From Escherichia coli O127:H6 str. E2348/69 (GTDB lineage: Bacteria; Pseudomonadota; Gammaproteobacteria; Enterobacterales; Enterobacteriaceae), in NCBI RefSeq assembly GCF_000026545.1, contig NC_011601.1: a stretch of DNA of 64,000 nucleotides, one strand, 5' to 3'. Shown here one piece after another: positions 18,125-61,603 of the stretch. Both the position numbers and the translations under genes were made by a program. Position 1 is the first letter of the stretch. Every line of letters begins with the position of its first letter. Below the pieces are notes generated by a model that was not told the DNA's origin, searched no databases, and was given only the letters and a program-made list of their open reading frames with translations.

Positions 18125-19171
18125 TTAACGTCCTGCTTTCAGCTTCTGATAATACTCTTCATAAATGCTGCTGGCGGAGCCTACGTCATTTTGCCATTCA
18201 CCATTTTTAATGGTTTCAGCATCCGGGTAGAGCGTTTTATCGTTCGCCACTTCCGGACTTAACAGCTTACGCGCCGCAAGGTTTGGCGTTGGATAACCGA
18301 TAGTTTCAGCAACCTGTTTTGCCACATCCGGGCGCAGCAGGAAGTTGATCAATTTCAGCGCGCCTTCTTTGTTTTTGGCATTTGCCGGGATCGCCAGGCT
18401 GTCCATCCAGAAAATGCCGCCTTCTTTCGGCCACACCACATCAATTGGCGTACCCGCCTGGCGTGCAACGAAAGCAGAACCGTTCCAGATCATGCCGAGG
18501 TTAACTTCGCCTTCCATATACGGGTTCGCCGGGTTATCGGAGTTAAACGCCGCGACGTTTGGCATCAGCTTTTTCAGCTCGTTGTATGCAGCTTCAATCT
18601 CTTTCGGATCGGTGGTGTTACCGGAGTAGCCCAGCTTACGCAGCGCCATCTGGAACACTTCACGGGCATCGTCGGTCAGCAGCAGGCTGCCTTTGTACTC
18701 AGGTTTCCACAGATCGGCCCAGCTGGTGACAGATTTCGGATCCACCGCATCACCGTTAACGCCAATCGCCGTTGCACCCCAGATATACGGAATGGAATAG
18801 TCGTTATTCGGGTCAAACGGCTTGTTGAGCATGTCTGGATCGAGGTTGCTGAAATTGCTTAACTTCGACTTGTCGATCTTCTGGATCATCCCTTCTTTAC
18901 GCATTTTATCGACGTAATAGGTTGAAGGAACCACCAGGTCATAGGCACCGTCTTTGTACGTTTTCAGCTTCGCGTACATGGTTTCGTTCGACTCGTAAGT
19001 CGAATAGATAACCTTAATACCGGTTTCTTTGGTGAACTGTTCAAGCAGTCCTGGCGGCACGTACTCGGTCCAGTTGTAGAAATACAGCGTGTTGTTGTCA
19101 TCGGCGTGAGCGGCGCTCATGCCCAGTGCCAGAGCACCCGCCGCGAGCAGGTGGCGTGACCATTTTTTCAT
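18125..19171 (-). CDS. potD: Spermidine/putrescine ABC transporter periplasmic binding protein PotD
   Basis: 348 aa with signal peptide MKKWSRHLLAAGALALGMSAAHA; synteny. Confidence 0.95.
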   Translation of the reverse strand: MKKWSRHLLAAGALALGMSAAHADDNNTLYFYNWTEYVPPGLLEQFTKETGIKVIYSTYESNETMYAKLKTYKDGAYDLVVPSTYYVDKMRKEGMIQKIDKSKLSNFSNLDPDMLNKPFDPNNDYSIPYIWGATAIGVNGDAVDPKSVTSWADLWKPEYKGSLLLTDDAREVFQMALRKLGYSGNTTDPKEIEAAYNELKKLMPNVAAFNSDNPANPYMEGEVNLGMIWNGSAFVARQAGTPIDVVWPKEGGIFWMDSLAIPANAKNKEGALKLINFLLRPDVAKQVAETIGYPTPNLAARKLLSPEVANDKTLYPDAETIKNGEWQNDVGSASSIYEEYYQKLKAGR

Positions 19172-19962
19172 TTAACGTCCCCTGTGTTACCTTTCGTTTT
19201 ATCACGAGCAATAAGCTGGCTGGCAATAACCATCACCAGCGACAGCACCAGTAATATGGTTGCCAGCGCGTTAACTTCCGGCGATACGCCGACTTTGACC
19301 ATCGAATAAATTTTTAACGGCAGAATTTCATAACTCGGCCCGGTGACAAACGAAGAAACCACCACGTCGTCCATCGACAGGGTAAAGCTTAACACCCAGC
19401 CCGCCGCTACCGCTGGCATTGCCAGAGGCAGAATGATTTTTCGCAGAATGGTAAATTCGCTGGCACCGAGATCTTTCGCCGCTTCCAGCATTCGCACGTC
19501 AAAACCTTTCAGGCGCGAATACACTGTCACCACCACAAATGGCAGGCAGAAGGTGATATGCGAGAACAGCAGCGACCAGAAGCCAAGCTGAATACCCAGC
19601 AGCATAAACAGCACCAGCAGCGAAATCGCCATCACGATATCTGGTGACATCATCACCACAAACAGCATTCCGCTAACGAACGGCTTACCACGAAAGCGAT
19701 AACGGTACAGCGCAACTGCCGTCAGTGAACCGATAAGCGTAGCAAACGTCGCCGAAAACACCGCCATTGTTAGTGAATGCTGCGCTGCCTGTAACAGGCT
19801 GTCGTTGTTCATCAGCAGGCTATACCATTTGGTGGTAAAACCCTGCCAGTTGATGCCAAAGCGCGAGCTGTTAAAGGAGTTCACAATCAAAATAATGATT
19901 GGGATATACAGGTACGCGTAGATAGCGGTCATAAAACCGCCGCGAAGCAGTCGACCGATCAT
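19168..19962 (-). CDS. potC: Spermidine/putrescine ABC transporter permease PotC
   Basis: 264 aa MIGRLLRGGFMTAIYAYLYIPIIILIVNSF... Confidence 0.95.
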   Translation of the reverse strand: MIGRLLRGGFMTAIYAYLYIPIIILIVNSFNSSRFGINWQGFTTKWYSLLMNNDSLLQAAQHSLTMAVFSATFATLIGSLTAVALYRYRFRGKPFVSGMLFVVMMSPDIVMAISLLVLFMLLGIQLGFWSLLFSHITFCLPFVVVTVYSRLKGFDVRMLEAAKDLGASEFTILRKIILPLAMPAVAAGWVLSFTLSMDDVVVSSFVTGPSYEILPLKIYSMVKVGVSPEVNALATILLVLSLVMVIASQLIARDKTKGNTGDVK

Positions 19963-19969
19963 TCGAGTT

Positions 19970-19983
19970 CCACCTTCTTATTC
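19970..19983. repeat. attL core: 14-bp direct repeat CACCTTCTTATTCA (prophage left junction)
   Basis: Identical 14-mer recurs at 60768-60781; bacterial potB-3'-end-like sequence (…aag aag gtg gaa ctc gaa tga = NKKVELE*) lies on the potC side. Confidence 0.75.
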
Positions 19984-20128
19984 ATAAGGCGGGACACTTT
20001 CAGGATTTTGAATTTATTCAATTTTTTCCTTTCTCCAAAATCTCTCCAAAACGTTTCCCCAAAACTAGGCCACGCATTTTACAACACTTTTTTCCTGAGA
20101 TGGTGACGGATATTCCATATGGTGTTTA

Positions 20129-21247
20129 TCAAATAACCAACTTAACCCATTCCTGACCTCGAGTATCGTTATAGCGATCGGTGGTTGCCTGGACTTTATG
20201 TCCTAGTAATGTTTTTGTATCAATACCCTGTGCACGGTACAGCCGTTCTGATAGAGAGCGTTGTTCATGAAATGTTGGCGGAGTTTTTCCTGCTGGTGGA
20301 ATTATCCCAGCCAGATCCCGTGCTTTGGCAAAGTAGTCGCTCAGGTTGTCTTTACTCATCGGCTTCGGTTGTTTCTGGTGCCGACTATGGATTAGATATG
20401 GACTTAATATTCTGTCTCGGCACCCATCAATAACTTCTTTTAACGTTATCCCAATGGCATCACAGCGTAGTGTAAGCGGTAACGCCAGACGCATTCCGGT
20501 TTTTCCCTGGGTGATATGCAAGTGTTCGTTCCACACATCTGAAAAACGCATGTGGCAAATGTCATCACGGCGCTGACCAGTAACAATCGCAAGAAGCATT
20601 GCGTTACGGATAAAGTGTTTTTCAGGCGTTGCATTGTAAATTTTTTGCCAGTCTTCCATGGTGAGCCTGGCTCTGGTTACTTTAGGGATCGGTTTACGGG
20701 TAGCCTCCGGAGGATTCCATCCAGGAGGAACTTCCCCTGCATGCTGTGCTTCTTTATAAATATCAACCCATAATCCACGATTTACTCTCGCTGTGCTGAC
20801 CATGTCTTTATCCAGCCACTCATCCAGTATTAATGCAAAGTCTCTTACTTCCAGTTCTTTCAATGGGTGGTTTCCCAGACGGGAAACCAGGTATGCAGCC
20901 ATTCGGGTTTTTTCTTTGTGAGTTGTAGCTGCAATATCTCCATTTTTCAGTCGCGTGTCCTGTATTTTCAGATATCGATCAACCCATGCCTTTAATCTGA
21001 TACCCTGACGTTTTGTTGCTGACGGACTTTCATCAATTTTGCGCATGAAATATTCAGCTTCTGCTGCAGCTATTCGCTGATTGGCTGTGGAAGCGATTTT
21101 TTCTGCCTTACCTTTGTCTGTTCCGAGTCCGTGAAATTTTCCAGTCACAGGATTTTTATACTGGTAGTAAACTCTGCCAGTTCTGCGATCAAACTTTTCG
21201 TAAAGACCGGCTACGTCAGTGCTGTTTTTTCGTGGCCTCGGTGACAT
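20129..21247 (-). CDS. int: Phage integrase, lambda Int family tyrosine recombinase
   Basis: 372 aa; catalytic region with conserved R...H..R...Y context (…FHEQRSLSERLY…LLGHKVQATTDRYNDTRGQEW) resembling lambda Int. Confidence 0.9.
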   Translation of the reverse strand: MSPRPRKNSTDVAGLYEKFDRRTGRVYYQYKNPVTGKFHGLGTDKGKAEKIASTANQRIAAAEAEYFMRKIDESPSATKRQGIRLKAWVDRYLKIQDTRLKNGDIAATTHKEKTRMAAYLVSRLGNHPLKELEVRDFALILDEWLDKDMVSTARVNRGLWVDIYKEAQHAGEVPPGWNPPEATRKPIPKVTRARLTMEDWQKIYNATPEKHFIRNAMLLAIVTGQRRDDICHMRFSDVWNEHLHITQGKTGMRLALPLTLRCDAIGITLKEVIDGCRDRILSPYLIHSRHQKQPKPMSKDNLSDYFAKARDLAGIIPPAGKTPPTFHEQRSLSERLYRAQGIDTKTLLGHKVQATTDRYNDTRGQEWVKLVI

Positions 21248-21494
21248 GAGTTAAAATCTCCTTCAGTGCATCATCATCGCCAGTATGAATTTCCGGCGCA
21301 ATTCCCGTTTCACCAGGCCCAACAAATACTGCTCGGCGATCTATCAGCCAACGCCCACGAATTTTTTGTGGTCTTGGAACGATGTATCCTAGTTTTCCGT
21401 ATTTCACCAGGGTAGTGTTTGTTATTGGGAGACTGAACCGTTTTGGTTTCCACTCGTCGAGCGTTATCAGGTACTGTTCGCTCATGGCTATCAC
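21216..21494 (-). CDS. xis: Excisionase-like protein
   Basis: Small basic ORF immediately upstream of and overlapping int, typical xis position; start codon uncertain (21494 or 21485). Confidence 0.6.
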   Translation of the reverse strand: MIAMSEQYLITLDEWKPKRFSLPITNTTLVKYGKLGYIVPRPQKIRGRWLIDRRAVFVGPGETGIAPEIHTGDDDALKEILTHVTEATKKQH

Positions 21495-21546
21495 TCCGGA
21501 ACGCGCCAGTTGCAGAATATCAACGACAACTGGCGACGGTTGAACA

Positions 21547-24018
21547 TTAAAAATCAGCCTGATTCGGGATCAGTTTTTGCCAGATAGCTGAAACGTATTT
21601 TGCCTGGTGACGAGCGTCATCAAGTGCATTATGGCGCTCACCTTCGAATGGAATAGCCGTTCTGGCATCGAAGTCTATGGCTTTCCCCAGCTCAACGATT
21701 GTGCGTACATCGCGATCGTTGTAGTAACGCCACGGGCAGGGGATCCCCTGCCGTTCGTATGAACGGCGCAAAATCGTGTTGTCGAAGTTGGCTCCATTTC
21801 CCCAAACCTGAACAAAAAATTCACCGGAGTTTTCGTCGATAAATTCCCGCAATTGTAACAGTGCATCATCTAACGGGATTTCATCGGTCATAATGGCAGA
21901 TTGCGCTTCGCGTGATTGCTTAAGCCACCATTTAATGGTGTCCCGATCAATGACTCCGCCAGCAGTTTCCAGATCGATAGTCTTACTAAATTCCGGTCCC
22001 ATATCTCCGGTTTGCGGATCGAAAAATATTGCACCTATTGAGATGATCGGGGCATCAGGATTTTTTCCCATGGTTTCAAGGTCGATCATTAGATGGTCAC
22101 ACGTCCTGCTGGTGGATGTGATTTCGTGATGACCGTTCACCTTAATTGAGTGATCTGCCGTCTCGCCAGTCTCATTATCGCTATTGTGATGCTGATTGCC
22201 GCCAGTGTTCTCCTTGTGTGGATGCTCAGCGCCTTCCATTTCCTCCGGATCATCTTCCTGAACTTCAACCTGATACTCTTCATCGAATGTTTCCTGGTAT
22301 GTTGCGTCGCCCATCACCGCACCACAATCAGGGCAGTTGCCGCCGCCGGTCTGACCGCAGGCGGTGCAGACTTTTTCCACTTCCTGTTGCACTACTGGTT
22401 CAGGTAGTTTCGTTTCTGGCTCGTTTTGTTGCGTATTTGGGCTGTTTTGTTCCGCTTTCTGGTCGTTCTGTTCCGTTTCTTGCTGGTTCTGGTTCACAGA
22501 ATCGCGGGTTTCAATCCCCTTCACCCATTTCGGATCATTCGGATCGCTAATCCCTGCAACAAATTCACCACGTGATACTGCAAGCAGTTCATCGGCGTCA
22601 GGCTGGCTGATATTGGCTGCCTGCATAATTTTGTTTACTTCGTCAGCGGTAACTTTTACCGGCCCTGGTTGTGCGGTCGTGTCAGATGCACCAGTATTTT
22701 GTTGTGAACCTGAGTATGTACCGTTTTTGCGGGCGAAATATTCTTCTTTCGTGATTTCAGTAGCCCCTGCAGCCAGTGCCTTATCCAGACCAGAAAGTTT
22801 GTTTGCGCGACCGTATTTTTCGCTATCCTTGTCGGTGAAGAGGAAGTAGAACGGCCCTTCACGCTCTACAGATGGTTCGACTTCCACTTTGCATTCGGTT
22901 TTTTCGTTGTCCGGAATTGCCGTTTCCACTGCATCAGTTTCTGGTACTGGCGACGAGAGAGTATCAGTTGCGCTCTGATTTGTTCCTTCATCTTCAAACA
23001 CGCCCTTTGTAGTCAGGTATTCAGTAATGTATTTGTTCAGTGCCACAGGGTCTTTGTGAATGTCGATCGGACGTTCACGGACAAGGCCAAAAATAGTCTG
23101 GCGGTCGTAGCGAAGGGCATCAGGCTGTTTGCGCATTGATGCCGAGATACGCTTCCAGTCTTCGCGGTAGTTGTCGATAACTTCATTTTTTGCCCAGCGA
23201 TGGATGCTGCCGTCAATGTTTCCGGCATCCACATCACCAGGCCAGAGAGCGTAGGCCAGTTCGTCATCCAGTGTTTTCCATGTCTGCTTGTATTCGCGAT
23301 GAGTGGCAGCAATGACCGGGCTGATTTTTCCTGTTGAATTTTCAGTGTTCTGTTGATTGGCTCTGGCGCGGGCGAGATCAACAACAGACGTGTATTTTCC
23401 GGTTTCCTTGCGTTCACCTTCGCGACGTTTTTTCCAGATGCGCATCTCTGCCTGAATTTCGGGCCATTTGGCACCAGGCTTACATTTATGCTTAACCCAC
23501 CCGATGGCATGCAGCTTAAGCTCCGGATACATGGCGTTAACTTCTGGCATTTTCATCAACGCTTCAACGATATGTCCGTCGAATGTTGCCATGTCTTCCT
23601 GCAACAATTCCTGTGCGCTAATCACCATATCAACGGTGATGTTTTCACATGTGTCGAACTTAACCATGACAGCGTTCTGTACTTCAGGGGCCAGCTTGTC
23701 AAAAGTGACGTTCATCGGATCGGATTCAGTCTCAACCGGGACAAAAGAAGCAGAATCCTCATCCCAGCGGTTTTCCTGCATATATTCAGCATCCCATGAA
23801 TCGAGGGCAGGGCGGGGTATGCCAGGTTTATCCTCGCAGACAATAAATTTATAAGCGCAGTCCTGAGCAGCCGGATAATGTTCCAGGAATTGCCAGTGAA
23901 ATTTTGCTCGAGCACGGCGTTCGTCGCCAGCTTCAATGGCTGTGGCTACAGCCACAGCGCCTTCTTCCCTTGTTGCCAGTTCGTCAGGAATAGCGGCGCA
24001 AATAAAGACTTTACTCAT
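21547..24018 (-). CDS. RecE-like protein with C-terminal DEDDh-type 3'-5' exonuclease domain
   Basis: Segment LLAVSRGEFVAGISDPNDPKWVKGIETRDSVNQNQ resembles RecE (exonuclease VIII) as recalled; acidic linker; C-terminal DLETMG...NGANFD...HNALDDARH DnaQ-like motifs. Confidence 0.7.
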   Translation of the reverse strand: MSKVFICAAIPDELATREEGAVAVATAIEAGDERRARAKFHWQFLEHYPAAQDCAYKFIVCEDKPGIPRPALDSWDAEYMQENRWDEDSASFVPVETESDPMNVTFDKLAPEVQNAVMVKFDTCENITVDMVISAQELLQEDMATFDGHIVEALMKMPEVNAMYPELKLHAIGWVKHKCKPGAKWPEIQAEMRIWKKRREGERKETGKYTSVVDLARARANQQNTENSTGKISPVIAATHREYKQTWKTLDDELAYALWPGDVDAGNIDGSIHRWAKNEVIDNYREDWKRISASMRKQPDALRYDRQTIFGLVRERPIDIHKDPVALNKYITEYLTTKGVFEDEGTNQSATDTLSSPVPETDAVETAIPDNEKTECKVEVEPSVEREGPFYFLFTDKDSEKYGRANKLSGLDKALAAGATEITKEEYFARKNGTYSGSQQNTGASDTTAQPGPVKVTADEVNKIMQAANISQPDADELLAVSRGEFVAGISDPNDPKWVKGIETRDSVNQNQQETEQNDQKAEQNSPNTQQNEPETKLPEPVVQQEVEKVCTACGQTGGGNCPDCGAVMGDATYQETFDEEYQVEVQEDDPEEMEGAEHPHKENTGGNQHHNSDNETGETADHSIKVNGHHEITSTSRTCDHLMIDLETMGKNPDAPIISIGAIFFDPQTGDMGPEFSKTIDLETAGGVIDRDTIKWWLKQSREAQSAIMTDEIPLDDALLQLREFIDENSGEFFVQVWGNGANFDNTILRRSYERQGIPCPWRYYNDRDVRTIVELGKAIDFDARTAIPFEGERHNALDDARHQAKYVSAIWQKLIPNQADF

Positions 24019-25312
24019 TTGTTTTAACCTCATGACAGATTTAAGGATGAACAAATCCCTGCCATTGCTGGCATATAAGAATGAAACCGGATATTTATTA
24101 CGGAACTGTTTTAAAGACCTGCCGGGATTTCGATATTATCCTGGTGAATAACTTTATCGACCGGGTAACAGTTACCGGGAATTTTCTGTTCGGTTGCTGC
24201 AGTCATACACTACTGCATTGTCCTGTGAACACTGACTGCAATATCAACTGGCTCTCCGGAAACAAGAAAAACTGTCAGAACAAGCACAAATGCTGAATTC
24301 ATTGTGCACATCCTTTTGGCATCAGACGTAAACGAGCCAGCATTGAAACAATGCATATTTTATTTAATAGCTCCCGTTCTTGTTTTCTCTTGTTAATGGC
24401 ATCTTCAGTAAATACTGGGTTACTGATAGTGACACCAATTTCAAAACAACCTTCAGACGTATTAACGTTTGGTAATAACGTTTTCATTATCGCGTCCTCA
24501 ACAATGAATTTTGTGATGCAGTGCCTGGTGCCTCCAGGTGACGTTAACCAGTTAACAATTAACGCCGGATACAGAGAATCCACCCATAACACTGTTTTTG
24601 GTTTTAACTGTTCCGCGTGCGCTCAGCCGCATTCACCACATCACAAAATTCACTTTAAAAAGGGCGGCAGAGCAGTCACGGAGTAAAACTGATACCGCCA
24701 AACGTCACCAGAAAATTGATAACAGAGGGCGTTGCAGCGGGGTTGTCACTTAAGCGTATGGTCAACCTGACAACCCGGTGTCCTCAACGGGGGAAGGAAT
24801 AACCCCGCCATACTTACCGCCGCGCCATTTCGCGGATTGCCACAACCGGAAGCGCACGGTCGACGAAAATTTAACGACAGGCTATCTATGAACCAGCTAC
24901 CTCGCCGTGCGCTTTCGCGTTATGGTCTGACTTTTCAGGGAAATATCCTTTCAGTAAACTGTCAGTGCCGGATGCTCACCCGTGTCCGGCGCACGCACTC
25001 CACCTCATCCGTGGAGAACTCCTTAATTACCAACCTTAGCTTCGTTGGTTAGCTATTAACGCGGGTATGTAATCATTCTGGCAATGCTTAATGTCGCTGC
25101 TTTTTCCAGATTAGTGATATCCTGCTCCAGAGCGGACAGATTTTCAGCCTGCTTAGCCCTGGCTTCATTGGCCCATTTCAGATCCTGCGCTGCATTAATT
25201 TTCTGGCGCATCCACTCATAAAGTTCATCATCGGTATAGTCTGGCGCGATGATGACGGGTTCTCGTTTCTGCATACTGATTCCTCGCGGTGCTGTTTCGC
25301 TTATCAGCCGTT

Positions 25313-25682
25313 AGATTTTGCCGAACTGGAAAGTGCCTGTTTAAATTCGCTGAAGCTGAGAGCTTCTTCGCCTTCGGCAAGACCTTCGAAGTATTCTTCG
25401 TAAGCCTTTTCCATGATTGTGTCGAAATCCATATCACCCACCTGAATTTCTTTCCAGCCAGCGACGCGCTCCAGATTCGGTTTTAAACGTTTTGCTTTTG
25501 GTATACGTCATCGCGGTGAACGTACCGTCCTGGTTGGGGAACACGCCACATACCAGAGATTCGCTGTTGCCAAGATCGATAGTATCCATGTTGACCTCAT
25601 TTCCCCTTAACGCCGGGGTAGCGGAACTGTTTGCTGAGAACACCGTGCGGTGTCTTGATGGATCGTAATTTAGTTTTCTCAT
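25313..25682 (-). pseudogene. Phage early-region ORF apparently split by a frameshift
   Basis: Two adjacent minus-strand reading frames (25434-25682 and one ending near 25313) read coherently only if a frameshift occurs near 25490-25510. Confidence 0.4.
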
Positions 25683-25780
25683 GAATATTGATCAAGTGCT
25701 TTTGATGATAAAACTCAATATTTAATGCAAAATAAAGCCAATACATTGAAATGTAAGGCTTTAAAATTTGTGAAGGGGGG

Positions 25781-26188
25781 TTATTGATGTTTGTTACGTT
25801 TGCGAGCTTCTAGTAGCTCGGTGAATAGGCGATTAAAATTCTCAACGCGGGCACGGAGTTCGCTGATTTGTGCTTGCTGCTCTGATTTTGGAAGTGCGCG
25901 ATACAATCGCAACATCTCCAACTCATCTTCCGATAAGTCTAAGGCGCTGTTGAGTGCAACTGGTGGATCTGGTGTTTTATCCTCGTCACCAAACAGTATC
26001 CAAGTTGGTGAACATTGCAATACCTCAGCCAGGCGATGCAAATTTTGCCCGCGCGGGGCTGTATGGTCGCTTTCCCATAGTGAAATTGATGAGCCAGATA
26101 CGCCAGCAGCTTTGCTTAAATCGTTTTGACTTAAACCAACCTGTTTGCGTCTTTCTCTAATTCGTTGACCTAAAGTTTTCTCGTTCAT
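25781..26188 (-). CDS. Prophage repressor, XRE-family HTH (RacR/CI-like), no S24 peptidase domain
   Basis: 135 aa; N-terminal HTH (LGQRIRERRKQVGLSQNDLSKAAGVSGSSISLWE); divergent from the cro-like gene. Confidence 0.8.
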   Translation of the reverse strand: MNEKTLGQRIRERRKQVGLSQNDLSKAAGVSGSSISLWESDHTAPRGQNLHRLAEVLQCSPTWILFGDEDKTPDPPVALNSALDLSEDELEMLRLYRALPKSEQQAQISELRARVENFNRLFTELLEARKRNKHQ

Positions 26189-26209
26189 ATTTAGATATCT
26201 TAATAACCC

Positions 26210-26239
26210 TTGACTTGAGATTCCTTGAGTGATTACTAT
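26210..26239 (+). promoter_or_regulatory. Candidate rightward early promoter/operator region (PR-like)
   Basis: TTGACT (26210-26215), 18-bp spacer, TACTAT (26234-26239); repeated CCTTGA operator-like motifs; RBS ggagg before the ATG at 26266. Confidence 0.4.
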
Positions 26240-26265
26240 TGAGAAAACTCAACTTTGGAGGGGTG

Positions 26266-26493
26266 ATGTTTAAATCAGACGTAATTAATTTTTATGGGAC
26301 GAAAGCCAAAGTAGCGAAAGCTGCTGGTGTTGATCCATCTGCTGTTTCTCAATGGGGGGAACTGGTTCCTGAAGGTCGCGCGATGCGCCTGCAAGAGGCA
26401 TCCGGCGGGGAACTTCAGTACGACCCCAAAGTTTATGACGAATATCGTAAGGCAAAGCGGGCGGGGCGGTTGAACAATGAAAATCACCCCTGA
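26266..26493 (+). CDS. Cro/YdaS-like small DNA-binding protein
   Basis: MFKSDVINFYGTKAKVAKAAGVDPSAVSQWGELVPEG... HTH; first gene rightward of the repressor; the upstream TTG at 26239 lacks an RBS. Confidence 0.7.
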   Translation: MFKSDVINFYGTKAKVAKAAGVDPSAVSQWGELVPEGRAMRLQEASGGELQYDPKVYDEYRKAKRAGRLNNENHP

Positions 26494-27028
26494 ACAGGTT
26501 TGTGAGGCTCTGGATGCCTGGGTATGCCGACCAGGAATGACACAGGAGCAGGCGACGATATTAATCACGGAAGCATTCTGGGCTCTGAAAGAACGCCCGA
26601 ACATCGATGTTCAACGCGTCACGTTTAATGATGGCGAGGTTGATCAACGGGCGCTGTGCGTTAACCGGGTGAAGATATTCGAACGCTGGAAAGCTATCGA
26701 CACCAGGGATAAGCGGAAAAAATTCACGGCGCTGATTCCGGCAATTATGGAGGCTATCCGAATTAGTGATTTCAGGCTGTATCGTGAGATCAGTGATGGA
26801 AAAAGCATTACGTACATGATCGCCGGATTAAACAAAGAATATGGCGATGTGGTGGAGTCCGGGCTGCTTTTTGCGGATCCATCTGTTGTGGAACGTGAGA
26901 CTGACGAGCTTATAGAAAAAGCTATTGCTTTCAAGCATGCGTATCGTCAGCAATATCAATATTACTTTGCAGATAAACAAATGTCTGCCAGGGGTTCGTA
27001 TGAGTATCGATGCACTACGATGGGCTAA
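26477..27028 (+). CDS. YdaT-like protein (CII-position gene)
   Basis: 183 aa; segment ALIPAIMEAIRISDFRLY resembles Rac-prophage YdaT as recalled; follows the cro-like gene as in Rac racR-ydaS-ydaT. Confidence 0.55.
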   Translation: MKITPEQVCEALDAWVCRPGMTQEQATILITEAFWALKERPNIDVQRVTFNDGEVDQRALCVNRVKIFERWKAIDTRDKRKKFTALIPAIMEAIRISDFRLYREISDGKSITYMIAGLNKEYGDVVESGLLFADPSVVERETDELIEKAIAFKHAYRQQYQYYFADKQMSARGSYEYRCTTMG

Positions 27029-28040: not shown

Positions 28041-28494
28041 GCAGAAAATCCGACAGGTCTGCCGCCAGTGCATGGACCGCTGCCGGGCGGGTGAAACATG
28101 GCCTCCGGACCTGGCTGAGTTTGTGGCGCTGATTTCTGAAAGCGGAGCCAATCCATTCGGTCTGACGGTGGATGCCGTGATGGAGGAGTACCGTCGCTGG
28201 CGCAACGAGTCCTGGCGATACGACGGGAGCGATAAATACCCGTGGTCTCAGCCTGTGCTGTATCACATTTGCCTCGAGATGCGTTCAAAGGGGATTGAGC
28301 GGCAGATGACCGAAGGGGAGTTAAAACGGCTTGCAGAACGGCAGCTGACGAAATGGGCAAAGCATGTTAGTAACGGCCTGAGTGTTCCGCCAGTCCGGCG
28401 ACAACTGGCGGCACCCAAACGCCCGTCGGGGCCAACGCCAATTGAGTTGCTGAAACAGGAATATGAACGCCGGAAAGCGGCTGGGCTTGTCTGA
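27952..28494 (+). CDS. Replication protein P-like helicase loader
   Basis: Colinear similarity to lambda P C-terminal half as recalled (YPWS..., ...GELKRLAERQL..., ...KWAKHVSNGLSVPPV); start uncertain (27829, 27952 or 28033). Confidence 0.6.
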   Translation: MGEVYSNRWTQKNGAAPSKLWIAQIGAMTEQKIRQVCRQCMDRCRAGETWPPDLAEFVALISESGANPFGLTVDAVMEEYRRWRNESWRYDGSDKYPWSQPVLYHICLEMRSKGIERQMTEGELKRLAERQLTKWAKHVSNGLSVPPVRRQLAAPKRPSGPTPIELLKQEYERRKAAGLV

Positions 28495-28526
28495 GTTGAG
28501 AAGTAATTTTTACCGGGAGGAAATTT

Positions 28527-28801
28527 ATGGAGACTGTTTTTGACGCACTGAAAGCAATGGGAAAAGCCACATCCATAGAACTTGCTGCGCGCGTGAAGAA
28601 GTGCTGAACGAACTATGGGAACTGAAAAAGGCTGGTTTTGTTGATAAAAGCGCGTACACCTGGCGTGTGGCTGATAACAACGTTCAGCAGGAACAGCCAG
28701 CGCAGGCAGAACTGCCGGAAGAAACCACCACAATGAGTGAAGTTATGCAGCGCATACTGGCATTTTATCAGGGAAATGTTCGATATTTTAGACGTTACTA
28801 G
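28527..28801 (+). pseudogene. Small phage ORF apparently interrupted by frameshift/stop
   Basis: ATG at 28527 gives [26 protein letters not shown] and the sense continues in another frame (ORF 28601-28801). Confidence 0.35.
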
Positions 28802-53842: not shown

Positions 53843-56800
53843 ATGGGTAAAGGCAGCAGTAAGGGGCATACCCCGCGCGAAGCGAAGGACAACCTGAAAT
53901 CCACGCAGTTGCTGAGTGTGATTGATGCCATCAGCGAAGGGCCGATTGAAGGTCCGGTGGATGGATTAAAAAGCGTGCTGCTGAACAGTACGCCGGTGCT
54001 GGACAGTGAAGGTAATACCAACATCTCCGGTGTCACGGTGGTGTTCCGGGCCGGTGAGCAGGAGCAGACACCGCCGGAGGGATTTGAATCCTCCGGCTCT
54101 GAGACGGTGCTGGGTACGGAAGTGAAATACGACACGCCGATCACCCGCACCATCACGTCGGCAAACATCGATCGTCTGCGCTTTACTTTCGGTGTGCAGG
54201 CACTGGTGGAAACCACCTCAAAGGGGGACCGGAATCCGTCGGAAGTCCGCCTGCTGGTTCAGATACAGCGTAACGGTGGCTGGGTGACGGAAAAAGACAT
54301 CACCATTAAGGGTAAAACCACCTCGCAGTATCTGGCCTCGGTGGTGGTGGATAACCTGCCGCCGCGCCCGTTTAATATCCGGATGCGCAGGATGACGCCG
54401 GACAGCACCACAGACCAGCTGCAGAACAAAACGCTCTGGTCGTCATACACCGAAATCATCGATGTGAAACAGTGCTACCCGAACACGGCACTGGTCGGCG
54501 TGCAGGTGGACTCGGAGCAGTTCGGCAGCCAGCAGGTGAGCCGTAATTATCATCTGCGCGGGCGTATTCTGCAGGTGCCGTCGAACTATAACCCGCAGAC
54601 GCGGCAATACAGCGGTATCTGGGACGGAACGTTTAAGCCAGCATACAGCAACAACATGGCCTGGTGTCTGTGGGATATGCTGACCCATCCGCGCTACGGC
54701 ATGGGGAAACGTCTTGGTGCGGCGGATGTGGACAAATGGGCGCTGTATGTCATCGGCCAGCATTGCGATCAGTCGGTGCCGGACGGTTTTGGCGGCACGG
54801 AGCCGCGCATCACCTGTAATGCGTACCTGACCACACAGCGTAAGGCGTGGGATGTGCTCAGTGATTTCTGCTCTGCGATGCGCTGTATGCCGGTATGGAA
54901 CGGGCAGACGCTGACGTTCGTGCAGGACCGGCCATCGGATAAGGTGTGGACCTATAACCGCAGTAATGTGGTGATGCCGGATGATGGCGCGCCGTTCCGC
55001 TACAGCTTCAGCGCCCTGAAAGACCGCCATAATGCCGTTGAGGTGAACTGGACTGACCCGGATAACGGCTGGGAGACGGCGACAGAGCTTGTTGAAGATA
55101 CGCAGGCCATTCTCCGTTACGGTCGTAACGTCACGAAGATGGATGCCTTTGGCTGTACCAGCCGGGGGCAGGCGCACCGCGCCGGGCTGTGGCTGATTAA
55201 AACAGAACTGCTGGAAACGCAGACCGTGGACTTCAGCGTGGGTGCCGAAGGGCTTCGCCATGTACCGGGCGATGTCATTGAAATCTGCGATGATGACTAT
55301 GCCGGTATCAGCACCGGTGGTCGTGTGCTGGCGGTGAACAGCCAGACCCGGACGCTGACGCTCGACCGTGAAATCACGCTGCCATCCTCCGGTACCACGC
55401 TGATAAGCCTGGTTGACGGAAGTGGCAATCCGGTCAGCGTGGAGGTTCAGTCCGTCACCGACGGCGTGAAGGTAAAAGTGAGCCGTGTTCCTGACGGTGT
55501 TGCTGAATACAGCGTATGGGGGCTGAAGCTGCCGACGCTGCGCCAGCGACTGTTCCGCTGCGTGAGTATCCGTGAGAACGACGACGGCACGTATGCCATC
55601 ACCGCCGTGCAGCATGTGCCGGAAAAAGAGGCCATCGTGGATAACGGGGCGCACTTTGACGGCGAACAGAGTGGCACGGTGAACGGTGTCACGCCGCCAG
55701 CGGTGCAGCACCTGACTGCCGAAGTCACTGCAGACAGCGGGGAGTATCAGGTGCTGGCTCGATGGGACACGCCGAAGGTGGTGAAGGGCGTGAGCTTCCT
55801 GCTCCGTCTGACCGTGACAGCGGATGACGGCAGTGAGCGGCTGGTCAGCACGGCCCGGACGACGGAAACCACATACCGCTTCACGCAACTGGCGCTGGGG
55901 AACTACAGGCTGACGGTCCGGGCGGTAAATGCGTGGGGGCAGCAGGGCGATCCGGCATCGGTATCGTTCCGGATTGCGGCACCGGCAGCGCCTGTCACTA
56001 TTGAACTGATACCAGGGTATTTTCAGATAACAGCGGTCCCGAAACTGGCTGTATATGACCCGACGGTGCAGTTTGAGTTCTGGTTCTCGGAAAAGCGGAT
56101 TATCGATATCAGGCAGGTTGAAACCAGCGCGCGTTATCTTGGTACGGCGCTGTACTGGATAGCCGCCAGTAGCAATATTAAGCCGGGTTATGATTATTAC
56201 TTTTATATCCGCAGCGTGAACACCGTAGGTAAATCGGCATTTGTGGAGGCCGTCGGTCGGGCGAGCGATGATGCGGAAGGTTATCTGAATTTTTATAAAG
56301 GGTTGATCAATAAAACGCATCTCGGCAAGGAACTGCTGGAAAACTTTGAGCTGACGGAAGATAACGCCAGCAAACTGGAGGAGTTTTCGAAAGAGTGGAA
56401 GGACGCTAACGATAAATGGAATGCCATGTGGGGCGTCAAACTTGAGCAGACCAAAGACGGCAAACATTATGTCGCGGGTATTGGCCTCAGCATGGAGGAC
56501 ACGGAGGAAGGCAAGCTGAGCCAGTTTCTGGTTGCCGCTAACCGTATCGCGTTTATTGACCCGGCAAACGGGAATGAAACGCCGATGTTTGTGGCGCAGG
56601 GCAACCAGATATTCATGAATGACGTGTTCCTGAAACGCCTGACGGCCCCCACCATTACCAGCGGTGGCAATCCACCGGCATTTTCCCTGACACCGGACGG
56701 AAAGCTGACTGCTAAAAATGCGGATATCAGTGGCAGTGTGAATGCGAACGCCGGGACGCTCAACAACGTCACGGTAAATGAAAACTGTACGATTAAGGGC

Positions 56801-57256
56801 ATGCTGGAGGCGACTCAGGTCAGAGGTGACTTCGTTAAAGCTGTATCCAAATCATTTCCGAAACAGGCTGGTACGTGGGGTAACACGGAAACACCAAACG
56901 GGACGGTTACAGTCACCATCAGCGATGATCATAACTTTGACCGTCAAATCATTATTCCGCCCATTATCTTTAACGGAATAGCGTATAGCTATCCGGGAAG
57001 TGGTAATAACCCGGGAGGTACAAGTTACACGGGTTATGGTTTTGAAGTTCGCAAAAACGGTGTATTAATCGCATCCAGAGAAACTAAAGGGGCCATTCCC
57101 GGTAGTTACAGTGCAGTTATTGATATGCCTAGTGGTGGTGGTAGCGTCACTCTGGAGTTTAAGATTTTCCAGAAAGGCAATCAGGGGGCAGGCAATATCA
57201 CCGACTGTACGGTGATTGTGACCAAAAAAGCGGCTTCCGGCATCAGTATTCGTTGA
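53843..57256 (+). CDS. J: Host-specificity/tail tip protein gpJ-like
   Basis: 1137 aa, lambda J-like size and position, fibronectin-type repeats. Confidence 0.9.
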
Positions 57257-57275
57257 AATTGTTATAACCCATATA

Positions 57276-57303
57276 AGGGCACCAGAAATGGTGCCTTTTT
57301 TAT
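57276..57303 (+). terminator. Rho-independent terminator downstream of J
   Basis: agggcacc...ggtgcct stem followed by T-run. Confidence 0.75.
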
Positions 57304-57325
57304 TGCAGAAAAGCGAGAGGTAATT

Positions 57326-57925
57326 ATGCGTAAAGTTTGTGCAGCCATTTTGTCCGCAGCCATCTGTCTGTCCGTATCCGGTGCGCCTGCATGGGCGTCT
57401 GAACATCAGTCCACACTGAGCGCGGGGTATCTTCATGCCCGGACGAACGCTCCCGGTAGCGATAATCTTAACGGGATTAACGTGAAATACCGTTATGAAT
57501 TTACGGACACGCTGGGGCTGGTGACGTCATTCAGCTATGCAGGAGACAAGAATCGCCAGCTTACCCGTTACAGCGATACCCGCTGGCATGAAGATTCCGT
57601 GCGTAACCGCTGGTTCAGCGTAATGGCGGGGCCGTCTGTGCGCGTGAATGAATGGTTCAGCGCGTATGCGATGGCGGGTGTGGCTTACAGCCGTGTGTCG
57701 ACTTTCTCCGGGGATTATCTTCGCGTAACTGACAACAAGGGGAAAACGCACGATGTGCTGACCGGAAGTGATGACGGTCGCCACAGCGACACCTCTCTGG
57801 CGTGGGGAGCTGGCGTGCAGTTTAACCCGACCGAATCCGTGGCCATTGATATTGCTTATGAAGGCTCCGGCAGTGGCGACTGGCGCACTGACGGTTTCAT
57901 CGTGGGTGTCGGTTATAAATTCTGA
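57326..57925 (+). CDS. lom: Outer-membrane protein Lom (Ail/Lom family beta-barrel)
   Basis: Signal peptide, beta-barrel pattern ending ...[10 protein letters not shown]; position after J as in lambda. Confidence 0.88.
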
Positions 57926-57951
57926 TTAGCCAGGTAACACAGTGTTATGAC

Positions 57952-57978
57952 AGCCCGCCGGTTCAGGCGGGCTTTTTT
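57952..57978 (+). terminator. Rho-independent terminator downstream of lom
   Basis: gcccgccggttcaggcgggc stem-loop followed by T6. Confidence 0.75.
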
Positions 57979-57983
57979 GTGAG

Positions 57984-59303
57984 GTGAATATGGCAGTAAA
58001 GATTTCAGGTGTACTGAAAGACGGCACAGGAAAACCGGTACAGAACTGCACAATCCAGCTGAAAGCAAAACGTAACAGTACCACGGTGGTGGTGAACACG
58101 GTGGCCTCAGAAAATCCGGATGAAGCCGGGCGTTACAGCATGGATGTTGAGTATGGCCAGTACAGCGTCACCCTGCTGGTTGAAGGTTTTCCTCCTTCGC
58201 ATGCCGGGACCATCACCGTGTATGAAGATTCTCAGCCGGGTACGCTGAATGATTTTCTCGGTGCCATGTCGGAGGATGACGTCCGTCCGGAGGCACTGCG
58301 TCGCTTTGAACAAATGGTGGAAGAGGCAGCGCGTCACGCCGGGGAGGCGAAGAAGAATGCCGGAGAGGCGGAGACGTCAGCGAGGAATGCCGGCATATCA
58401 GCCAGTCAGGCAGAAGAGAGCGCGGCAAATGCTGACACTTCAGCAGGGGAGGCATCGGAGTCAGCCCGGCAGGCGGCAGAAAGTGCAGCCGCTGCAAAGA
58501 AGTCAGAGGAAGCGTCCTCGTCCTCGGCCTCTGAGGCCGCTCAAAAAGCCAGTGAGTCATTACAAAGTGCAGCAGATGCTGAGTTGTCAAAAAAGACGGC
58601 AGAAAGTGCAGCCGGTAATGCAGCCAGGGATGCAACGACCGCAGCAGAAAAAGCCCGGGAGTCAGCAGAAAGCGCACAGTCAGCGGAACAAAGCAGGATA
58701 GCGGCGGAAGACGCCGTAAACCGAATCCCCACCGTGGTGGGACCTCCCGGGCCAAAGGGAGAACCGGGGCCCGCGGGTCCTCAGGGGCCGAAGGGAGATA
58801 AAGGAGAGCGTGGCGACACCGGTCCTGTCGGGGCAACCGGTGAGCGGGGACCGGCAGGTGATGCTGGTCCGGCAGGCCCGCAGGGGCCGAAAGGCGACAG
58901 GGGAGAGCGGGGAGAGACCGGTCTGACGGGAAATGCAGGTCCACAGGGTCCAAAGGGAGATACCGGTGCGGCAGGTCCGGCAGGCCCACAGGGACCGAAA
59001 GGAGAAACAGGTGCGGCTGGCCCGGTGGGGGCAACCGGACCTCAGGGACCAAAGGGCGACCCGGGGGAGACACAAATCCGTTTTCGTCTGGGGCCGGCGA
59101 GCATTATTGAGACAAACAGCAATGGCTGGTTCCCGGGTACAGATGGTGCGCTCATCACCGGACTGACCTTTCTTGACCCCAAAGATGCCACACAGGTTCA
59201 GGGGCTGTTTCAGCATTTGCAGGTCAGGTTTGGTGACGGGCCGTGGCAGGATGTTAAGGGGCTGGATGAAGTGGGCAGTGATACAGGCAGAACAGGAGAA
59301 TGA
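57984..59303 (+). CDS. stf: Side tail fibre protein (Stf-like) with collagen-like Gly-X-Y repeats
   Basis: N-terminus [26 protein letters not shown]... matches lambda Stf; central [26 protein letters not shown]... collagen-like tract. Confidence 0.88.
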
Positions 59304-59304
59304 C

Positions 59305-59574
59305 ATGAACGTACTAAAAAAACTTATGCAGCGTCTGTGCGGGTACGGAAAGCATGATGACCGTGAACACGGGGAGTTACTTACAGCACAACTGCGTCTG
59401 GGGCCGGCAGACATCCTGGAGTCAGATGAGAATGGTATTATTCCGGAGCAGGCCAGGGTAATCACGCAGGTGGTGATACTGGATACAGATAAAAAGCAGA
59501 TACAGTGTGTGGTAAGACCGCTGCAAATCCTGCGTGCTGACGGGACGTGGGAAAATATTGGCGGGATGAAGTAA
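59305..59574 (+). CDS. Hypothetical tail-fibre-associated protein
   Basis: 89-aa ORF starting 2 nt after the stf stop; central segment resembles the Stf C-terminal segment (LRLGPADILESDENG vs [15 protein letters not shown]). Confidence 0.5.
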   Translation: MNVLKKLMQRLCGYGKHDDREHGELLTAQLRLGPADILESDENGIIPEQARVITQVVILDTDKKQIQCVVRPLQILRADGTWENIGGMK

Positions 59575-59590
59575 CCCGACGGGTTCACAA

Positions 59591-59616
59591 AAACCGGAGT
59601 CCGGCTCCGGTTTTTG
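59591..59616 (+). terminator. Rho-independent terminator
   Basis: ccggagtccggctccgg stem-loop followed by T5. Confidence 0.7.
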
Positions 59617-59617
59617 T

Positions 59618-59952
59618 TGTCATGTCCGGTGGATGTTTGTTATGACTCCCTATATTTCCAGACATCTGTTATCACTTAACCCATTACAAGCCCGCTGCCG
59701 CAGATATTCCCGTGGCGAGCGATAACCCAGCGCACTATGCGGATGCCATTCGTTATAATGCTCGAACGCCTCTGCAAGGTTCTTTGCTGCCGTTAACCCG
59801 TCTGGTTTAGGCATGATACTGATGTAGTCACGCTTTATCGTTTTCACGAAGCTCTCTGCTATGCCGTTACTCTCCGGACTCCGCACCGCCGTGTTCTTCG
59901 GTTCAAGCCCCAACATCCGGGCAAACTGCCGTGTTTCATTAGCCCGGTAGCA
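59618..59952 (-). mobile_element. IS2 remnant (3' end of the insD/orfB transposase gene and right end only)
   Basis: Minus-strand translation ...[43 protein letters not shown]...[29 protein letters not shown] equals the IS2 InsD C-terminus as recalled; no upstream part of the IS present. Confidence 0.75.
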
Positions 59953-60507
59953 CGGACCATAACAATTTATAATCTGCTGGCCGGAACTAATGAATTTATT
60001 GGTGAAGGTGACGCATATATTCCGCCTCATACAGGTCTGCCAGCAAACAGTACCGATATTGCACCACCAGATATTCCTGCTGGCTTTGTGGCTGTTTTCA
60101 ACAGTGATGAGGCATCGTGGCATCTCGTTGAAGACCATCGGGGTAAAACGGTTTATGACGTAGCGTCAGGGGACGAGTTATTTATTTCTGAACTCGGTCC
60201 GTTACCGGAAAATGTTACCTGGTTATCGCCGGAAGGGGAGTTTCAGAAGTGGAACGGCACAGCCTGGGTGAAAGATGCAGAAGCAGAAAAACTGTTCCGG
60301 ATCCGGGAGGCGGAAGAAACAAAAAACAACCTGATGCAGGTAGCCAGTGAGCATATTGCGCCACTTCAGGATGCGGTAGATCTGGAAATCGCAACGGAGG
60401 AAGAAAACTCGTTGCTGGAAGCCTGGAAGAAGTATCGGGTGTTGCTGAACCGTGTTGATACATCAACTGCACCTGATATTGAGTGGCCGACTTCACCTGC
60501 AGAGTAA
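59953..60507 (+). pseudogene. tfa: Tail fibre assembly protein (tfa) lacking its first codons and start
   Basis: [87 protein letters not shown]... colinear with lambda Tfa from about residue 10; homology ends abruptly at the IS2 remnant. Confidence 0.8.
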
Positions 60508-60739
60508 TCAACGGCGCAGGGATGATATTTTGTGCTTGAAGTGCCTCCCCGACCATTCAGATAGTCGGGGAGGGGGTATTGGGATTATACGCAATCAGTT
60601 TTAGTAAAAGACCGAAGCTCTCGAAAAATCTTTCTCCAAAACCAGAATGCAATTGATTGATTTTGATAGGATCTATAACGCCGTTACCTTAAACGGCAAA
60701 ACCACTCAAAAACAAACCTAATGTATTGAATATAAAGGA

Positions 60740-61603
60740 TTAATCATCTAATTCGCTCACCTTCTTATTCAGCAGACGAGAAGCGCGCCAGTAAACCAGC
60801 AACATCAGGCCCATTACGATAGTCAGCGTAATGCTGGTGGCTGCACCAAACGGCCAGTCACGAATATTGAGGAACTGTACCTTGATGACGTTACCGATCA
60901 GCAGGTTTTTCGCACCGCCCATCAGGTCGGACACATAGAACAGGCCCATCGCTGGCAGCATCACCAGCAGACATCCGGCAATAATTCCCGGCATCGTTAG
61001 TGGGATAATGATGCGGATAAAGGTCTGCAACTTGCTGGCACCGAGATCGCGCGCCGCCTCAAGCAACGGCTTATCCAGTTTTTCGATACTGGAGTACAGC
61101 GGCATCACCATAAACGGCAGCAGAATGTAAACCAGACCGATAATCACCGCACTAGGCGTGAACATGATGCGAATTGGTGTATCGATAACGCCCAGCCAGA
61201 GCAAAAACTCGTTGAGATAGCCTTTGGTGCTGAGGAAAATTTTCAGCCCGTAAATACGAATCAATGAGTTGGTCCAGAACGGAACAATCAGCAGAAACAG
61301 CAGCAGCGGACGCACCTTGTGTGGCAGCTTCGCCAGAAACCAGGCAAAAGGATAGCCCAGCACCAGGCAGGCGAGGGTGGCGATCAGCGCCATATTCAGC
61401 GAGTGCAATAGCACTTCAAAATAGAGCGGATCGAGCAGACGCGTGTAGTTATCCAGCGTAAAGACCATTTTGACGAAACTGGCGTCGTCGCGGGTCAAAA
61501 AGCTGGTGCCAATGATCATCAGGTTGGGCAGAAAGACAAACAACACAAGCCAACCGACAATAGTGACAATCACTACATTCTGGAACTTACTTGTGTTCTT
61601 CAT
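60740..61603 (-). CDS. potB: Spermidine/putrescine ABC transporter permease PotB (3' end remodelled by prophage junction)
   Basis: 287-aa ORF ...[17 protein letters not shown]; the terminal codons derive from phage-side sequence while the ancestral-type ending NKKVELE* is found next to potC at attL; N-terminal start uncertain. Confidence 0.9.
60768..60781. repeat. attR core: 14-bp direct repeat CACCTTCTTATTCA (prophage right junction)
   Basis: Identical to 19970-19983; lies inside the 3' end of potB. Confidence 0.75.

Follow-up and report, generated by a model that had tools for sequence, protein, structure and literature searches.

A lambdoid prophage at the potB/potC junction splits potABCD in Escherichia coli E2348/69 and most likely places potC-potD under phage transcription

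Organization of the split pot locus

In E. coli O127:H6 str. E2348/69, a 40,787-bp lambdoid prophage lies between potA-potB (62723-60740) and potC-potD (19962-18125), both pairs being on the minus strand of the window, i.e. the whole 64,000-nucleotide stretch of DNA that was analysed. We regard the following account, taken as a whole, as probable: the phage was inserted by its integrase, PotB was kept, potC-potD are most likely transcribed from the phage, and potAB and potCD are no longer coupled in transcription. That the operon is physically split by a prophage had been stated in the preliminary description, and the same 14-bp core on both flanks of the insertion bears this out. The genes and signals of the locus are as follows.

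62825-62797: candidate potA promoter TTGGCG-17-TAGAAT, a promoter-like site upstream of potA
61587..62723, minus strand: potA, ATPase of the spermidine/putrescine ABC importer (ORF, Pfam ABC_tran and TOBE_2, RefSeq annotation)
60740..61603, minus strand: potB, permease, 287 aa
19168..19962, minus strand: potC, permease, 264 aa (ORF, RefSeq, Pfam)
19226-19198: candidate promoter TTGCCA-17-GATAAA, native, inside potC just upstream of potD (PWM scan, consensus match)
18125..19171, minus strand: potD, periplasmic spermidine-binding protein, 348 aa (ORF, RefSeq, Pfam)
18091..18118, minus strand: native intrinsic terminator behind potD (stem of 12 bp, 7 of them GC, and then a run of T)

The canonical potABCD operon consists of four contiguous, overlapping cistrons behind the potA promoter; here 40.8 kb lies between potB and potC. 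Each of the four pot ORFs is intact, and the native upstream region still adjoins potA. The interval 61603-60740, earlier given for potA and potB together, covers potB alone, with potA at 62723-61587. In the empty K-12 site, native potB ends in ...NKKVELE and its TGA stop codon overlaps the ATG of potC (ATGA). This overlap of the potB stop and the potC start is gone in E2348/69, just as had been described. The PotC protein has the same accession, WP_000580316.1, in K-12 and in E2348/69.

Attachment sites and anatomy of the prophage

Judged by its sequence anatomy, the split is the work of a lambda-type temperate phage that was inserted through Int-mediated site-specific recombination into its normal attachment site at the end of potB. 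Exactly two copies of the 14-bp direct repeat are present (19971-19984 and 60758-60771), with 40,787 bp from one to the other; shuffled sequences gave no matches. It reads CACCTTCTTATTCA on the plus strand and TGAATAAGAAGGTG on the gene strand, and alignment with the empty K-12 site shows a single core copy in attB, where it comprises the last potB codons and the potC ribosome-binding site. The arm next to int has three tandem copies of the pattern TTTTGG(A/G)GA and the opposite arm has one; at least three exact copies of TTTTGGAGA turned up in 2 of 100 shuffles, and these repeats are taken as putative Int sites.

60758..60771, minus strand: attR core copy TGAATAAGAAGGTG (K-12 alignment, repeat search)
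60633..60641, minus strand: P-arm, one TTTTGGAGA, a putative arm-type repeat for Int binding (sequence pattern)
19985..60757: defective lambdoid prophage between the cores, ~40.8 kb (RefSeq annotation at the identical locus of E2348/69)
21216..21494, minus strand: xis, excisionase (RefSeq), overlapping the int start
20129..21247, minus strand: int, lambda-type tyrosine integrase, 372 aa, intact, transcribed towards potC, no pseudogene flag
20032..20064, minus strand: P'-arm, with TTTTGGGGA, TTTTGGAGA and TTTTGGAGA as three putative arm-type sites in tandem, located between the stop codon of int and the core
19971..19984, minus strand: attL core copy, holding most of the potC Shine-Dalgarno sequence AAGGTGG (19976-19970)

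The int product matches Pfam Arm-DNA-bind_1 (E 3.8e-21) and Phage_integrase (E 1.5e-18), and its ORF lies 166 nt from potC. The Pfam match of xis to Exc, with 23.0 bits, falls exactly at the cut-off of 23. A comparison of the reconstructed attP with a phage collection yielded no independent attP, the matches being records of prophage origin that either carry potC and potD of the host or cover the arms in part. The prophage, which we take to be PP5 of the published numbering, has an immunity region of the DicA/DicC type, and its ydfABC-DicF-dicB-exo-xis-int genes are directed towards potC. According to the RefSeq annotation, it lacks the capsid, tail-tube and tape-measure genes and contains three IS elements. 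Its cargo includes a Septu module and no stx.

Such a layout might also be imagined as a reversible switch (active lysogeny), in which Int/Xis excision restores potABCD in a subpopulation or under certain conditions with no phage being made. Intact int and xis, identical cores and the putative arm-type sites would all serve this purpose. With the capsid and tail genes deleted and IS elements inserted, no virions are possible, so that the cell would not be killed by particle formation upon excision. In addition, PP_potB is patchy in O157:H7 clade 8, which has been read as frequent loss or gain (PMC9997748). However, any ordinary lambdoid prophage would be expected to show the same layout, no evidence for regulated excision was found here, and a defective element, once excised, would be lost, which amounts to a one-way cure instead. 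We consider a switch highly improbable and favour an integrated prophage with potCD most likely transcribed from it.

Prevalence and conservation of the split

The potB-potC junction is intact in 3,800 of 5,426 complete E. coli genomes. The same int-attL-potC junction as in E2348/69 is present in 1,395 complete E. coli genomes at an identity of at least 96.8%, O157:H7 included, and the attR junction in 917. About 30% of complete E. coli genomes carry an insertion at the potB/potC site; the split is therefore a real but ordinary feature and no speciality of E2348/69. The insertion is also already known, being a textbook-style integration at a catalogued site of a reference EPEC genome, to which nothing new is added here. 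Of 5,424 genomes that gave a match, roughly 1,600 of them split, 5,423 have potC and potD contiguous, large disruptions being what was scored. Closer inspection of 10 evenly sampled lysogens and two variant lysogens found potC and potD full-length and free of pseudogenes in every case (12/12).

An assembly artefact or a chance juxtaposition is refuted, its probability being practically nil. Over 48,501 bp the sequence matches the finished chromosome of E2348/69 (NZ_CP059840.2) at 100% identity, the same junctions recur in 917 to 1,395 independent complete genomes, and an exact 14-bp core is found twice where chance would give none.

The C-terminus of PotB and a remnant ORF

The changed C-terminal tail of PotB, pointed out in the preliminary description, is real but small: three residues are replaced by five. 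PotB ends in ...NKKVSELDD here and has 287 aa as against 285 in the native protein, the last three residues ELE having become SELDD through phage-derived codons (60757-60740). Residues 1-282 are unchanged and identical to those of the solved PotB (PDB 8Y5F, chain B). The P-arm of the phage would thus give potB a substitute 3' end, and PotB would stay functional, so that potA-potB would still be expressed from the native potA promoter.

On the other side of the prophage, a phage-derived A joined to the tail of potB creates a remnant ORF, and its stop codon overlaps the start of potC just as the potB stop does in the native operon.

19959..19985, minus strand: remnant 8-codon ORF, MNKKVELE and stop (ATG AAT AAG AAG GTG GAA CTC GAA TGA)

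A role of this ORF as a translational-coupling device is unsupported: it has no Shine-Dalgarno sequence, and its ATG rests on a single phage base beside the core. The ATG is present in 10 of 10 sampled lysogens because their arms are nearly identical. The ORF is probably incidental.

Transcription and translation of potC-potD

The native DNA left upstream of the potC ATG amounts to only 22 nt, namely the 14-bp core and GAACTCGA. No native promoter is kept in so short a stretch, and potC transcription must therefore originate in phage DNA. The earlier proposal that potCD expression depends on read-through or promoters of the prophage accordingly holds for potC, with int and xis in the same orientation; an independent native potC promoter, for which the preliminary description had allowed, is structurally excluded.

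The distance between int and potC is 166 nt. This gap is poor in C (24 of the 166 nt), contains no intrinsic terminator on the gene strand, and shows no unusual RNA structure, since its folding is no better than that of shuffled sequences (z = -0.16). From the gap to the terminator of potD, the only terminator-like sites found on the gene strand were weak 5-pair stems, in int (20603-20588) and in potC (19683-19670), and the first strong terminator downstream of int is the native one after potD. A scan of the gap for consensus sigma-70 promoters gave none. The candidates from a PWM scan of the phage left end are ordinary in score and not conserved, and none is strong: of 10 other lysogens, 9 have an altered -35 element in the candidate at 20223, and one has an altered -10 element in that at 20331.

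We infer that potCD are most likely the tail of phage-initiated leftward transcripts, because they lie 166 nt downstream of the co-oriented xis-int with no terminator before that of potD. Basal int transcription could be the source, or weak promoters in the 3' end of int or in the P' arm, and a native internal promoter in potC may add to the transcription of potD. As for translation, potC retains its start codon and its own Shine-Dalgarno sequence and can hence be translated without the need for coupling; both potC and potD would be read from their own ribosome-binding sites. The expected outcome is a two-part transporter locus, with potAB and potCD transcriptionally uncoupled, in which the PotB:PotC translational coupling and the autoregulation by PotD of its own gene would be lost. 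Two considerations bear on the amount of such read-through. Lambda lysogens express int poorly, and read-through into potCD could for this reason be very low. Moreover, a variant in EC416 has ~1 kb with two antisense genes between int and attL, so read-through from int is no universal solution.

It is also conceivable that the split is functionally neutral, in that internal promoters normally supply potD and perhaps a sufficient amount of potC, and the link to the potA promoter matters little. The candidate TTGCCA-17-GATAAA inside potC would fit this, as would the presence of the split in about 30% of complete genomes. In the commensal HS, which may be split or intact at potB/potC, potD shows a fold-change of -6.4 as compared with -1.9 to -3.4 for potABC. 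Nevertheless, with 22 nt of native DNA upstream, neutrality of this kind is structurally impossible for potC, and the site in front of potD is a consensus match for which no experimental support was found. We judge a neutral split unlikely and retain phage-initiated transcription as the explanation for potC at least.

Evidence from published expression data

Published RNA-seq of E2348/69 (Hazen et al. 2015, PMC4464170) is available as lists thresholded at |log2FC| >= 2, i.e. at least 4-fold between media, and these give no absolute levels. In the sheet 'DMEM 0.2 vs LB 0.2', potA drops from 6493 to 916 and potB from 1831 to 356, and potD, potC and int (E2348C_1215-1217) are absent from all the differential-expression lists examined at this threshold. 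That potAB are listed and potCD are not weakly supports transcriptional uncoupling of the two halves. The genes ymfA and ycfZ also appear in the same sheet.

The absence of potC and potD from these lists would also suit another possibility, in which potCD are essentially silent in lysogens, spermidine uptake by PotABCD is abolished, and the cell relies on biosynthesis and other polyamine transporters. Every native promoter has been removed from potC, the phage left end is without a predicted strong promoter, and loss of potD can be tolerable, and may even be adaptive, in K-12 (PMC5495878). On the other hand, silent genes are difficult to reconcile with potCD being uninterrupted in all but one of the 5,424 genomes, roughly 1,600 split ones included, with full-length genes in all 12 other lysogens inspected, with the identical PotC accession in K-12 and E2348/69, and with the lack of a terminator from int to potC. 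Furthermore, CFT073, a Phi-potB lysogen according to the literature (PMC4632033), has a measurable amount of potD mRNA that is subject to regulation. Silence of potCD is in our view very unlikely, and their transcription from the phage remains the preferred account.

The literature search found no study discussing potCD expression or spermidine uptake in potB lysogens. A microarray match for 'potCB' in a lambda lysogen is irrelevant, the lambda prophage in that case being located at attB-lambda.

Implications for polyamine transport

In nearly a third of complete E. coli genomes, EPEC, UPEC and many STEC among them, the main spermidine importer would have its two halves under different transcriptional control. 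If uptake were measurably altered, work on polyamines, acid resistance and virulence would have to reckon with a common variable that depends on the strain, and the split would be an example of a prophage taking over the expression of core genes. A bolder version can be put forward, in which potCD of about 30% of E. coli are the distal genes of a DicA-controlled leftward unit, spermidine uptake and the PotD feedback on the potA promoter follow the state of the prophage, and Int/Xis excision restores the ancestral circuit. It would mean a widespread phage-imposed rewiring of polyamine transport; we regard it as distinctly unlikely.

Comparison with known systems

The site has been named as the potB/potC locus, PP_potB or Phi-CFT073-potB in several papers (PMC8065619, PMC11052207, PMC10925052, PMC9997748, PMC4632033, PMC3573123), none of which deals with potCD expression. 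PP_potB of O157:H7, Phi-CFT073-potB and the Stx phages at potC share the attachment site and the integrase type with the E2348/69 prophage. The E2348/69 copy differs from them in being decayed, with no capsid or tail-tube genes and with three IS elements, and in its cargo.

The lambda prophage offers a mechanistic parallel for potCD, since its leftward transcripts can read through attL into gal ('escape synthesis'), which is the mechanism proposed here. The E2348/69 prophage resembles lambda in having an Int with an arm-binding domain, an Xis, a short core, putative arm sites in both P and P', and an int gene pointing towards attL and the host operon; its immunity region is of the Qin/DicA type and not cI as in lambda. 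Lambda inserts between operons (gal and bio), whereas the prophage of E2348/69 cuts one operon. In lambda, read-through is an extra source of transcripts on induction, but potC-potD have no promoter of their own in front of potC, and phage transcription would be their sole source.

Rac in ttcA, and e14 and phage 21 in icd, likewise insert into a coding sequence and provide phage DNA as an alternative terminus, which leaves the host protein slightly changed but still functional; Rac alters the terminus of TtcA, and excision of Rac alters its function (PMC4632033). The targets ttcA and icd are single genes, while the potB/potC site lies where two cistrons with coupled translation meet, so that two downstream genes are also cut off from their promoter. 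Finally, phage phi10403S in comK of Listeria is a known case of active lysogeny, or a phage regulatory switch. As at comK, the prophage at the pot locus interrupts a host function that precise excision would restore; unlike at comK, no gene is inactivated, all four pot ORFs being intact.

Integration of a prophage at the potB/potC junction

Across 48.5 kb, the window matches the chromosome of E2348/69, an enteropathogenic E. coli, at 100% identity. Its ORF map gives the following genes around the two ends of the prophage:

Genes of the pot operon and the adjoining prophage arm
19171-18125, minus, potD (348 aa)
19962-19168, minus, potC (264 aa)
21247-20129, minus, integrase, int (372 aa)
21494-21216, minus, excisionase, xis (92 aa)
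24054-21547, minus, exonuclease (835 aa)
61603-60740, minus, potB (287 aa)
62723-61587, minus, potA (378 aa)

Pfam confirmed the transporter parts among the proteins of the window, a lambda-type integrase (Arm-DNA-bind_1 and Phage_integrase) and an Exc-family excisionase. The coordinates of the preliminary description were right overall, except that 61603-60740 holds potB alone and not potA-potB.

Both prophage ends were aligned to the uninterrupted K-12 locus, in which the junction reads ...CTG CTG AAT AAG AAG GTG GAA CTC GAA TGA TCG..., PotB ends in NKKVELE* and the potB TGA overlaps the potC ATG. A 14-base core, TGAATAAGAAGGTG, is found once at each prophage end (gene-strand coordinates 60771-60758 and 19984-19971), the copies being 40,787 bp apart, with no matches in shuffles. 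The operon is split as previously proposed. Phage DNA (AGC GAA TTA GAT GAT TAA) follows directly on the potB copy of the core, and PotB therefore ends in NKKVSELDD*; the changed tail and the loss of the native stop/start overlap, both claimed before, are borne out by this alignment. In the solved structure PDB 8Y5F, PotB (chain B) has exactly the same residues 1-282, and the alignment with 8Y5G_B, a deposited PotB chain of 273 residues, is confined to PotB residues 7-279. Judged from sequence, the new tail differs very little and probably does no harm.

On the potC side, the phage DNA terminates in ...CCCGCCTTA, followed by the core, eight native bases (GAACTCGA) and the potC ATG, so that only 22 nt of native DNA are left 5′ of potC. 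The Shine-Dalgarno sequence of potC (AAGGTGG, 7 nt from the ATG) is retained, mostly within the core. The stretch from int to the core holds three TTTTGG(A/G)GA repeats in tandem, and the opposite arm holds one, a pattern that fits putative arm-type Int sites. The layout is that of ordinary lambda-style integration, in which the 3′ end of the target gene is replaced by a terminus from the phage. We hold this anatomy to be nearly certain, and an assembly artefact is hardly credible.

Route for potCD transcription

With only 22 native nt upstream, no native promoter is retained, and by this reading potC transcription must begin in phage DNA. An independent native potC promoter, which the preliminary description had considered as making the split irrelevant, is thereby excluded. 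The leftward prophage genes (a DicA-like repressor gene, ydfABC, DicF, dicB, exo, xis and int) all face potC. No intrinsic terminator was detected in the 166-nt gap between int and potC, where RNA folding was no better than in shuffles (z = -0.16), nor was a strong one detected in the Qin-like ydfABC-DicF-dicB-exo-xis-int unit pointing at potC. Since the gap is C-poor (24/166 nt), it would be a poor Rho substrate. The first strong terminator past int is the native one after potD (18118-18091), and read-through from int into potC therefore appears structurally open.

The earlier proposal that potCD depend on read-through or prophage promoters is supported as to the start in phage DNA and the open path. 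A consensus scan of the gap returned zero promoter sites. A PWM scan gave the following candidates:

PWM promoter candidates
20331-20301, TTGCCA-19-(TGg)GATAAT, inside int
20223-20195, TTGATA-17-CATAAA
P′ arm (phage DNA between the int stop and the attL core), TTTGGA-17-TAAATT, weak
19226-19198, TTGCCA-17-GATAAA, inside potC just before potD

Dozens of scores of this size are expected by chance within the window, and the 20223 and 20331 candidates are altered in other lysogens with intact potCD; promoter prediction is unhelpful here.

A candidate potA promoter lies at 62825-62797. Past the new potB stop, no canonical intrinsic terminator was found (60500-60757, minus), and transcription of potAB probably continues, in antisense, through the tail-fibre assembly gene. 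That region has a GC-rich hairpin of 10 bp, CCTCCCCGAC...GTCGGGGAGG, at about 60570-60538, which could be a terminator or a sib-like element.

Retention and expression of potCD

Both potC and potD are full-length, and neither is a pseudogene, in 10/10 evenly sampled lysogens of this site, and likewise in two variants: EC416 (locus L003, 2174-2822), where a 1-kb insert with a DUF2335 gene and a hypothetical gene, both antisense, separates int from the arm sites of attL, and an O157:H16 strain (locus L004, 1-3134), with int truncated by an IS66-family element. In CFT073, a reported Phi-potB carrier, potD mRNA has been quantified and is 2.5-fold regulated, so that one or more potB-site lysogens do express potD. 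Silence of potCD is improbable.

In published RNA-seq of E2348/69 (PMC4464170, Data Sheet 3), the complete 'DMEM 0.2 vs LB 0.2' list contains potA (6493 to 916 reads, log2 fold-change -2.83), potB (1831 to 356 reads, -2.36) and the downstream genes ymfA and ycfZ. E2348C_1215-1217, which must be potD, potC and int, are absent from all the thresholded differential-expression lists examined, including this one. The pattern agrees with potCD being uncoupled from potAB, though weakly, as thresholded lists carry no absolute levels. In the commensal strain HS, potD and potABC show different fold-changes, which, if the HS junction is intact, may point to some native control of potD alone. The split could then be functionally neutral thanks to internal promoters, which is impossible for potC; we regard such neutrality as unlikely, though less so than silence. 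An excision-based switch is very doubtful.

It is reasonably probable, in our judgement, that transcription of potCD starts in phage DNA, uncoupled from that of potAB. In such an arrangement, potAB would remain under the potA promoter, phage-initiated leftward transcripts would cross attL into potCD, and a native internal promoter may additionally serve potD. Each of potC and potD would be translated from its own ribosome-binding site, with PotB:PotC translational coupling lost, and potD would be removed from control of the potA promoter, of which PotD is a reported repressor (PMC5495878).

Content of the prophage

According to the RefSeq annotation of E2348/69, the intervening DNA is a lambdoid prophage with terminase, portal, tail tip J, Lom and tail fibre genes, a lysis cassette, RusA, O/P-type replication genes, a DicA/DicC-type immunity region and ydfABC-dicB, then exo, xis and int. 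Between the head protease and tail-tip K genes, where capsid, tail tube and tape measure genes would normally stand, the annotation has none of these, and three IS elements are inserted:

Insertion sequences in the prophage
33372-34460, IS481
43265-44638, ISEc13
44776-45234, IS200C

The prophage is defective. At 52789-53237, an S49 head protease fragment is fused to an NlpC/P60 (tail K-like) gene fragment. An IS3-type transposase fragment (59650-59958) lies in the tail-fibre/tail-fibre-assembly region, and the tail-fibre gene (57984-59303, plus) carries collagen-like GPxG repeats, preceded by a long stretch rich in alanine, glutamate and serine (SA.EA. and similar motifs).

The prophage also carries a Septu anti-phage system of two genes (31122-33117, plus), which encode the AAA ATPase PtuA (457 aa, E 1.9e-165) and the HNH nuclease PtuB (211 aa, E 1.1e-83). 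Alongside lie a DUF5677 gene and a second integrase gene that is frameshifted (30189-30709), and the region resembles a defence island that was inserted in the prophage. Upstream of dicB (24487-24299) is a copy of the DicF sRNA (24713-24662, minus; Rfam 76.7 bits). The sok antitoxin RNA (33262-33428, plus) and the hokD toxin gene (34532-34687) have the IS481-family element between or overlapping them, and this toxin-antitoxin locus may be disrupted. Of two tRNA genes, the first (39238-39313, plus) is tRNA-Met (CAU) by ARAGORN versus tRNA-Ile by RefSeq, presumably a lysidine-modified CAU, and the second (39411-39487, plus) is tRNA-Arg (UCU); they would read AUA and AGA, both rare codons in E. 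coli. Other Rfam matches and cargo genes span 40169-40358 (plus), 40384-40719, 40980-42830, 44643-44766 and 60269-60467. STnc100 stands immediately 5′ of an IraM-like anti-adaptor gene, STnc490 adjoins IS200C, 'IS009' falls within the attR-adjacent tail-fibre assembly gene, and a SASA-family carbohydrate esterase gene is also carried.

Distribution and comparison with known systems

Junctions among 5,426 complete E. coli genomes
uninterrupted potB-potC, 3,800/5,426 (70%)
same int-attL-potC, 1,395/5,426
same potB-attR-tail-fibre-assembly, 917/5,426

The potCD pair is contiguous in 5,423/5,424 genomes, the sole exception still having an adjacent potB; in an evenly spaced sample, 13/40 potCD matches have no adjacent potB. 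The site has been named as the Stx-phage insertion site potC (PMC8065619), prophage 5 (potC) (PMC10925052), PP_potB in O157:H7 clade 8 (PMC9997748) and Phi-CFT073-potB (PMC4632033, PMC3573123). From these counts and names, the split of potB and potC by a prophage is real, already known and widespread.

The potB/potC-site prophages are the closest known cases, the E2348/69 prophage being a decayed member of that group. Lambda offers a parallel in mechanism, integration with read-through into an adjoining host operon, and Rac (ttcA) and e14 (icd) one in that a prophage replaces the end of a host gene. The E2348/69 case differs in its target, a junction between two coupled cistrons, so that two core genes are left without a promoter of their own, a neat but minor point.
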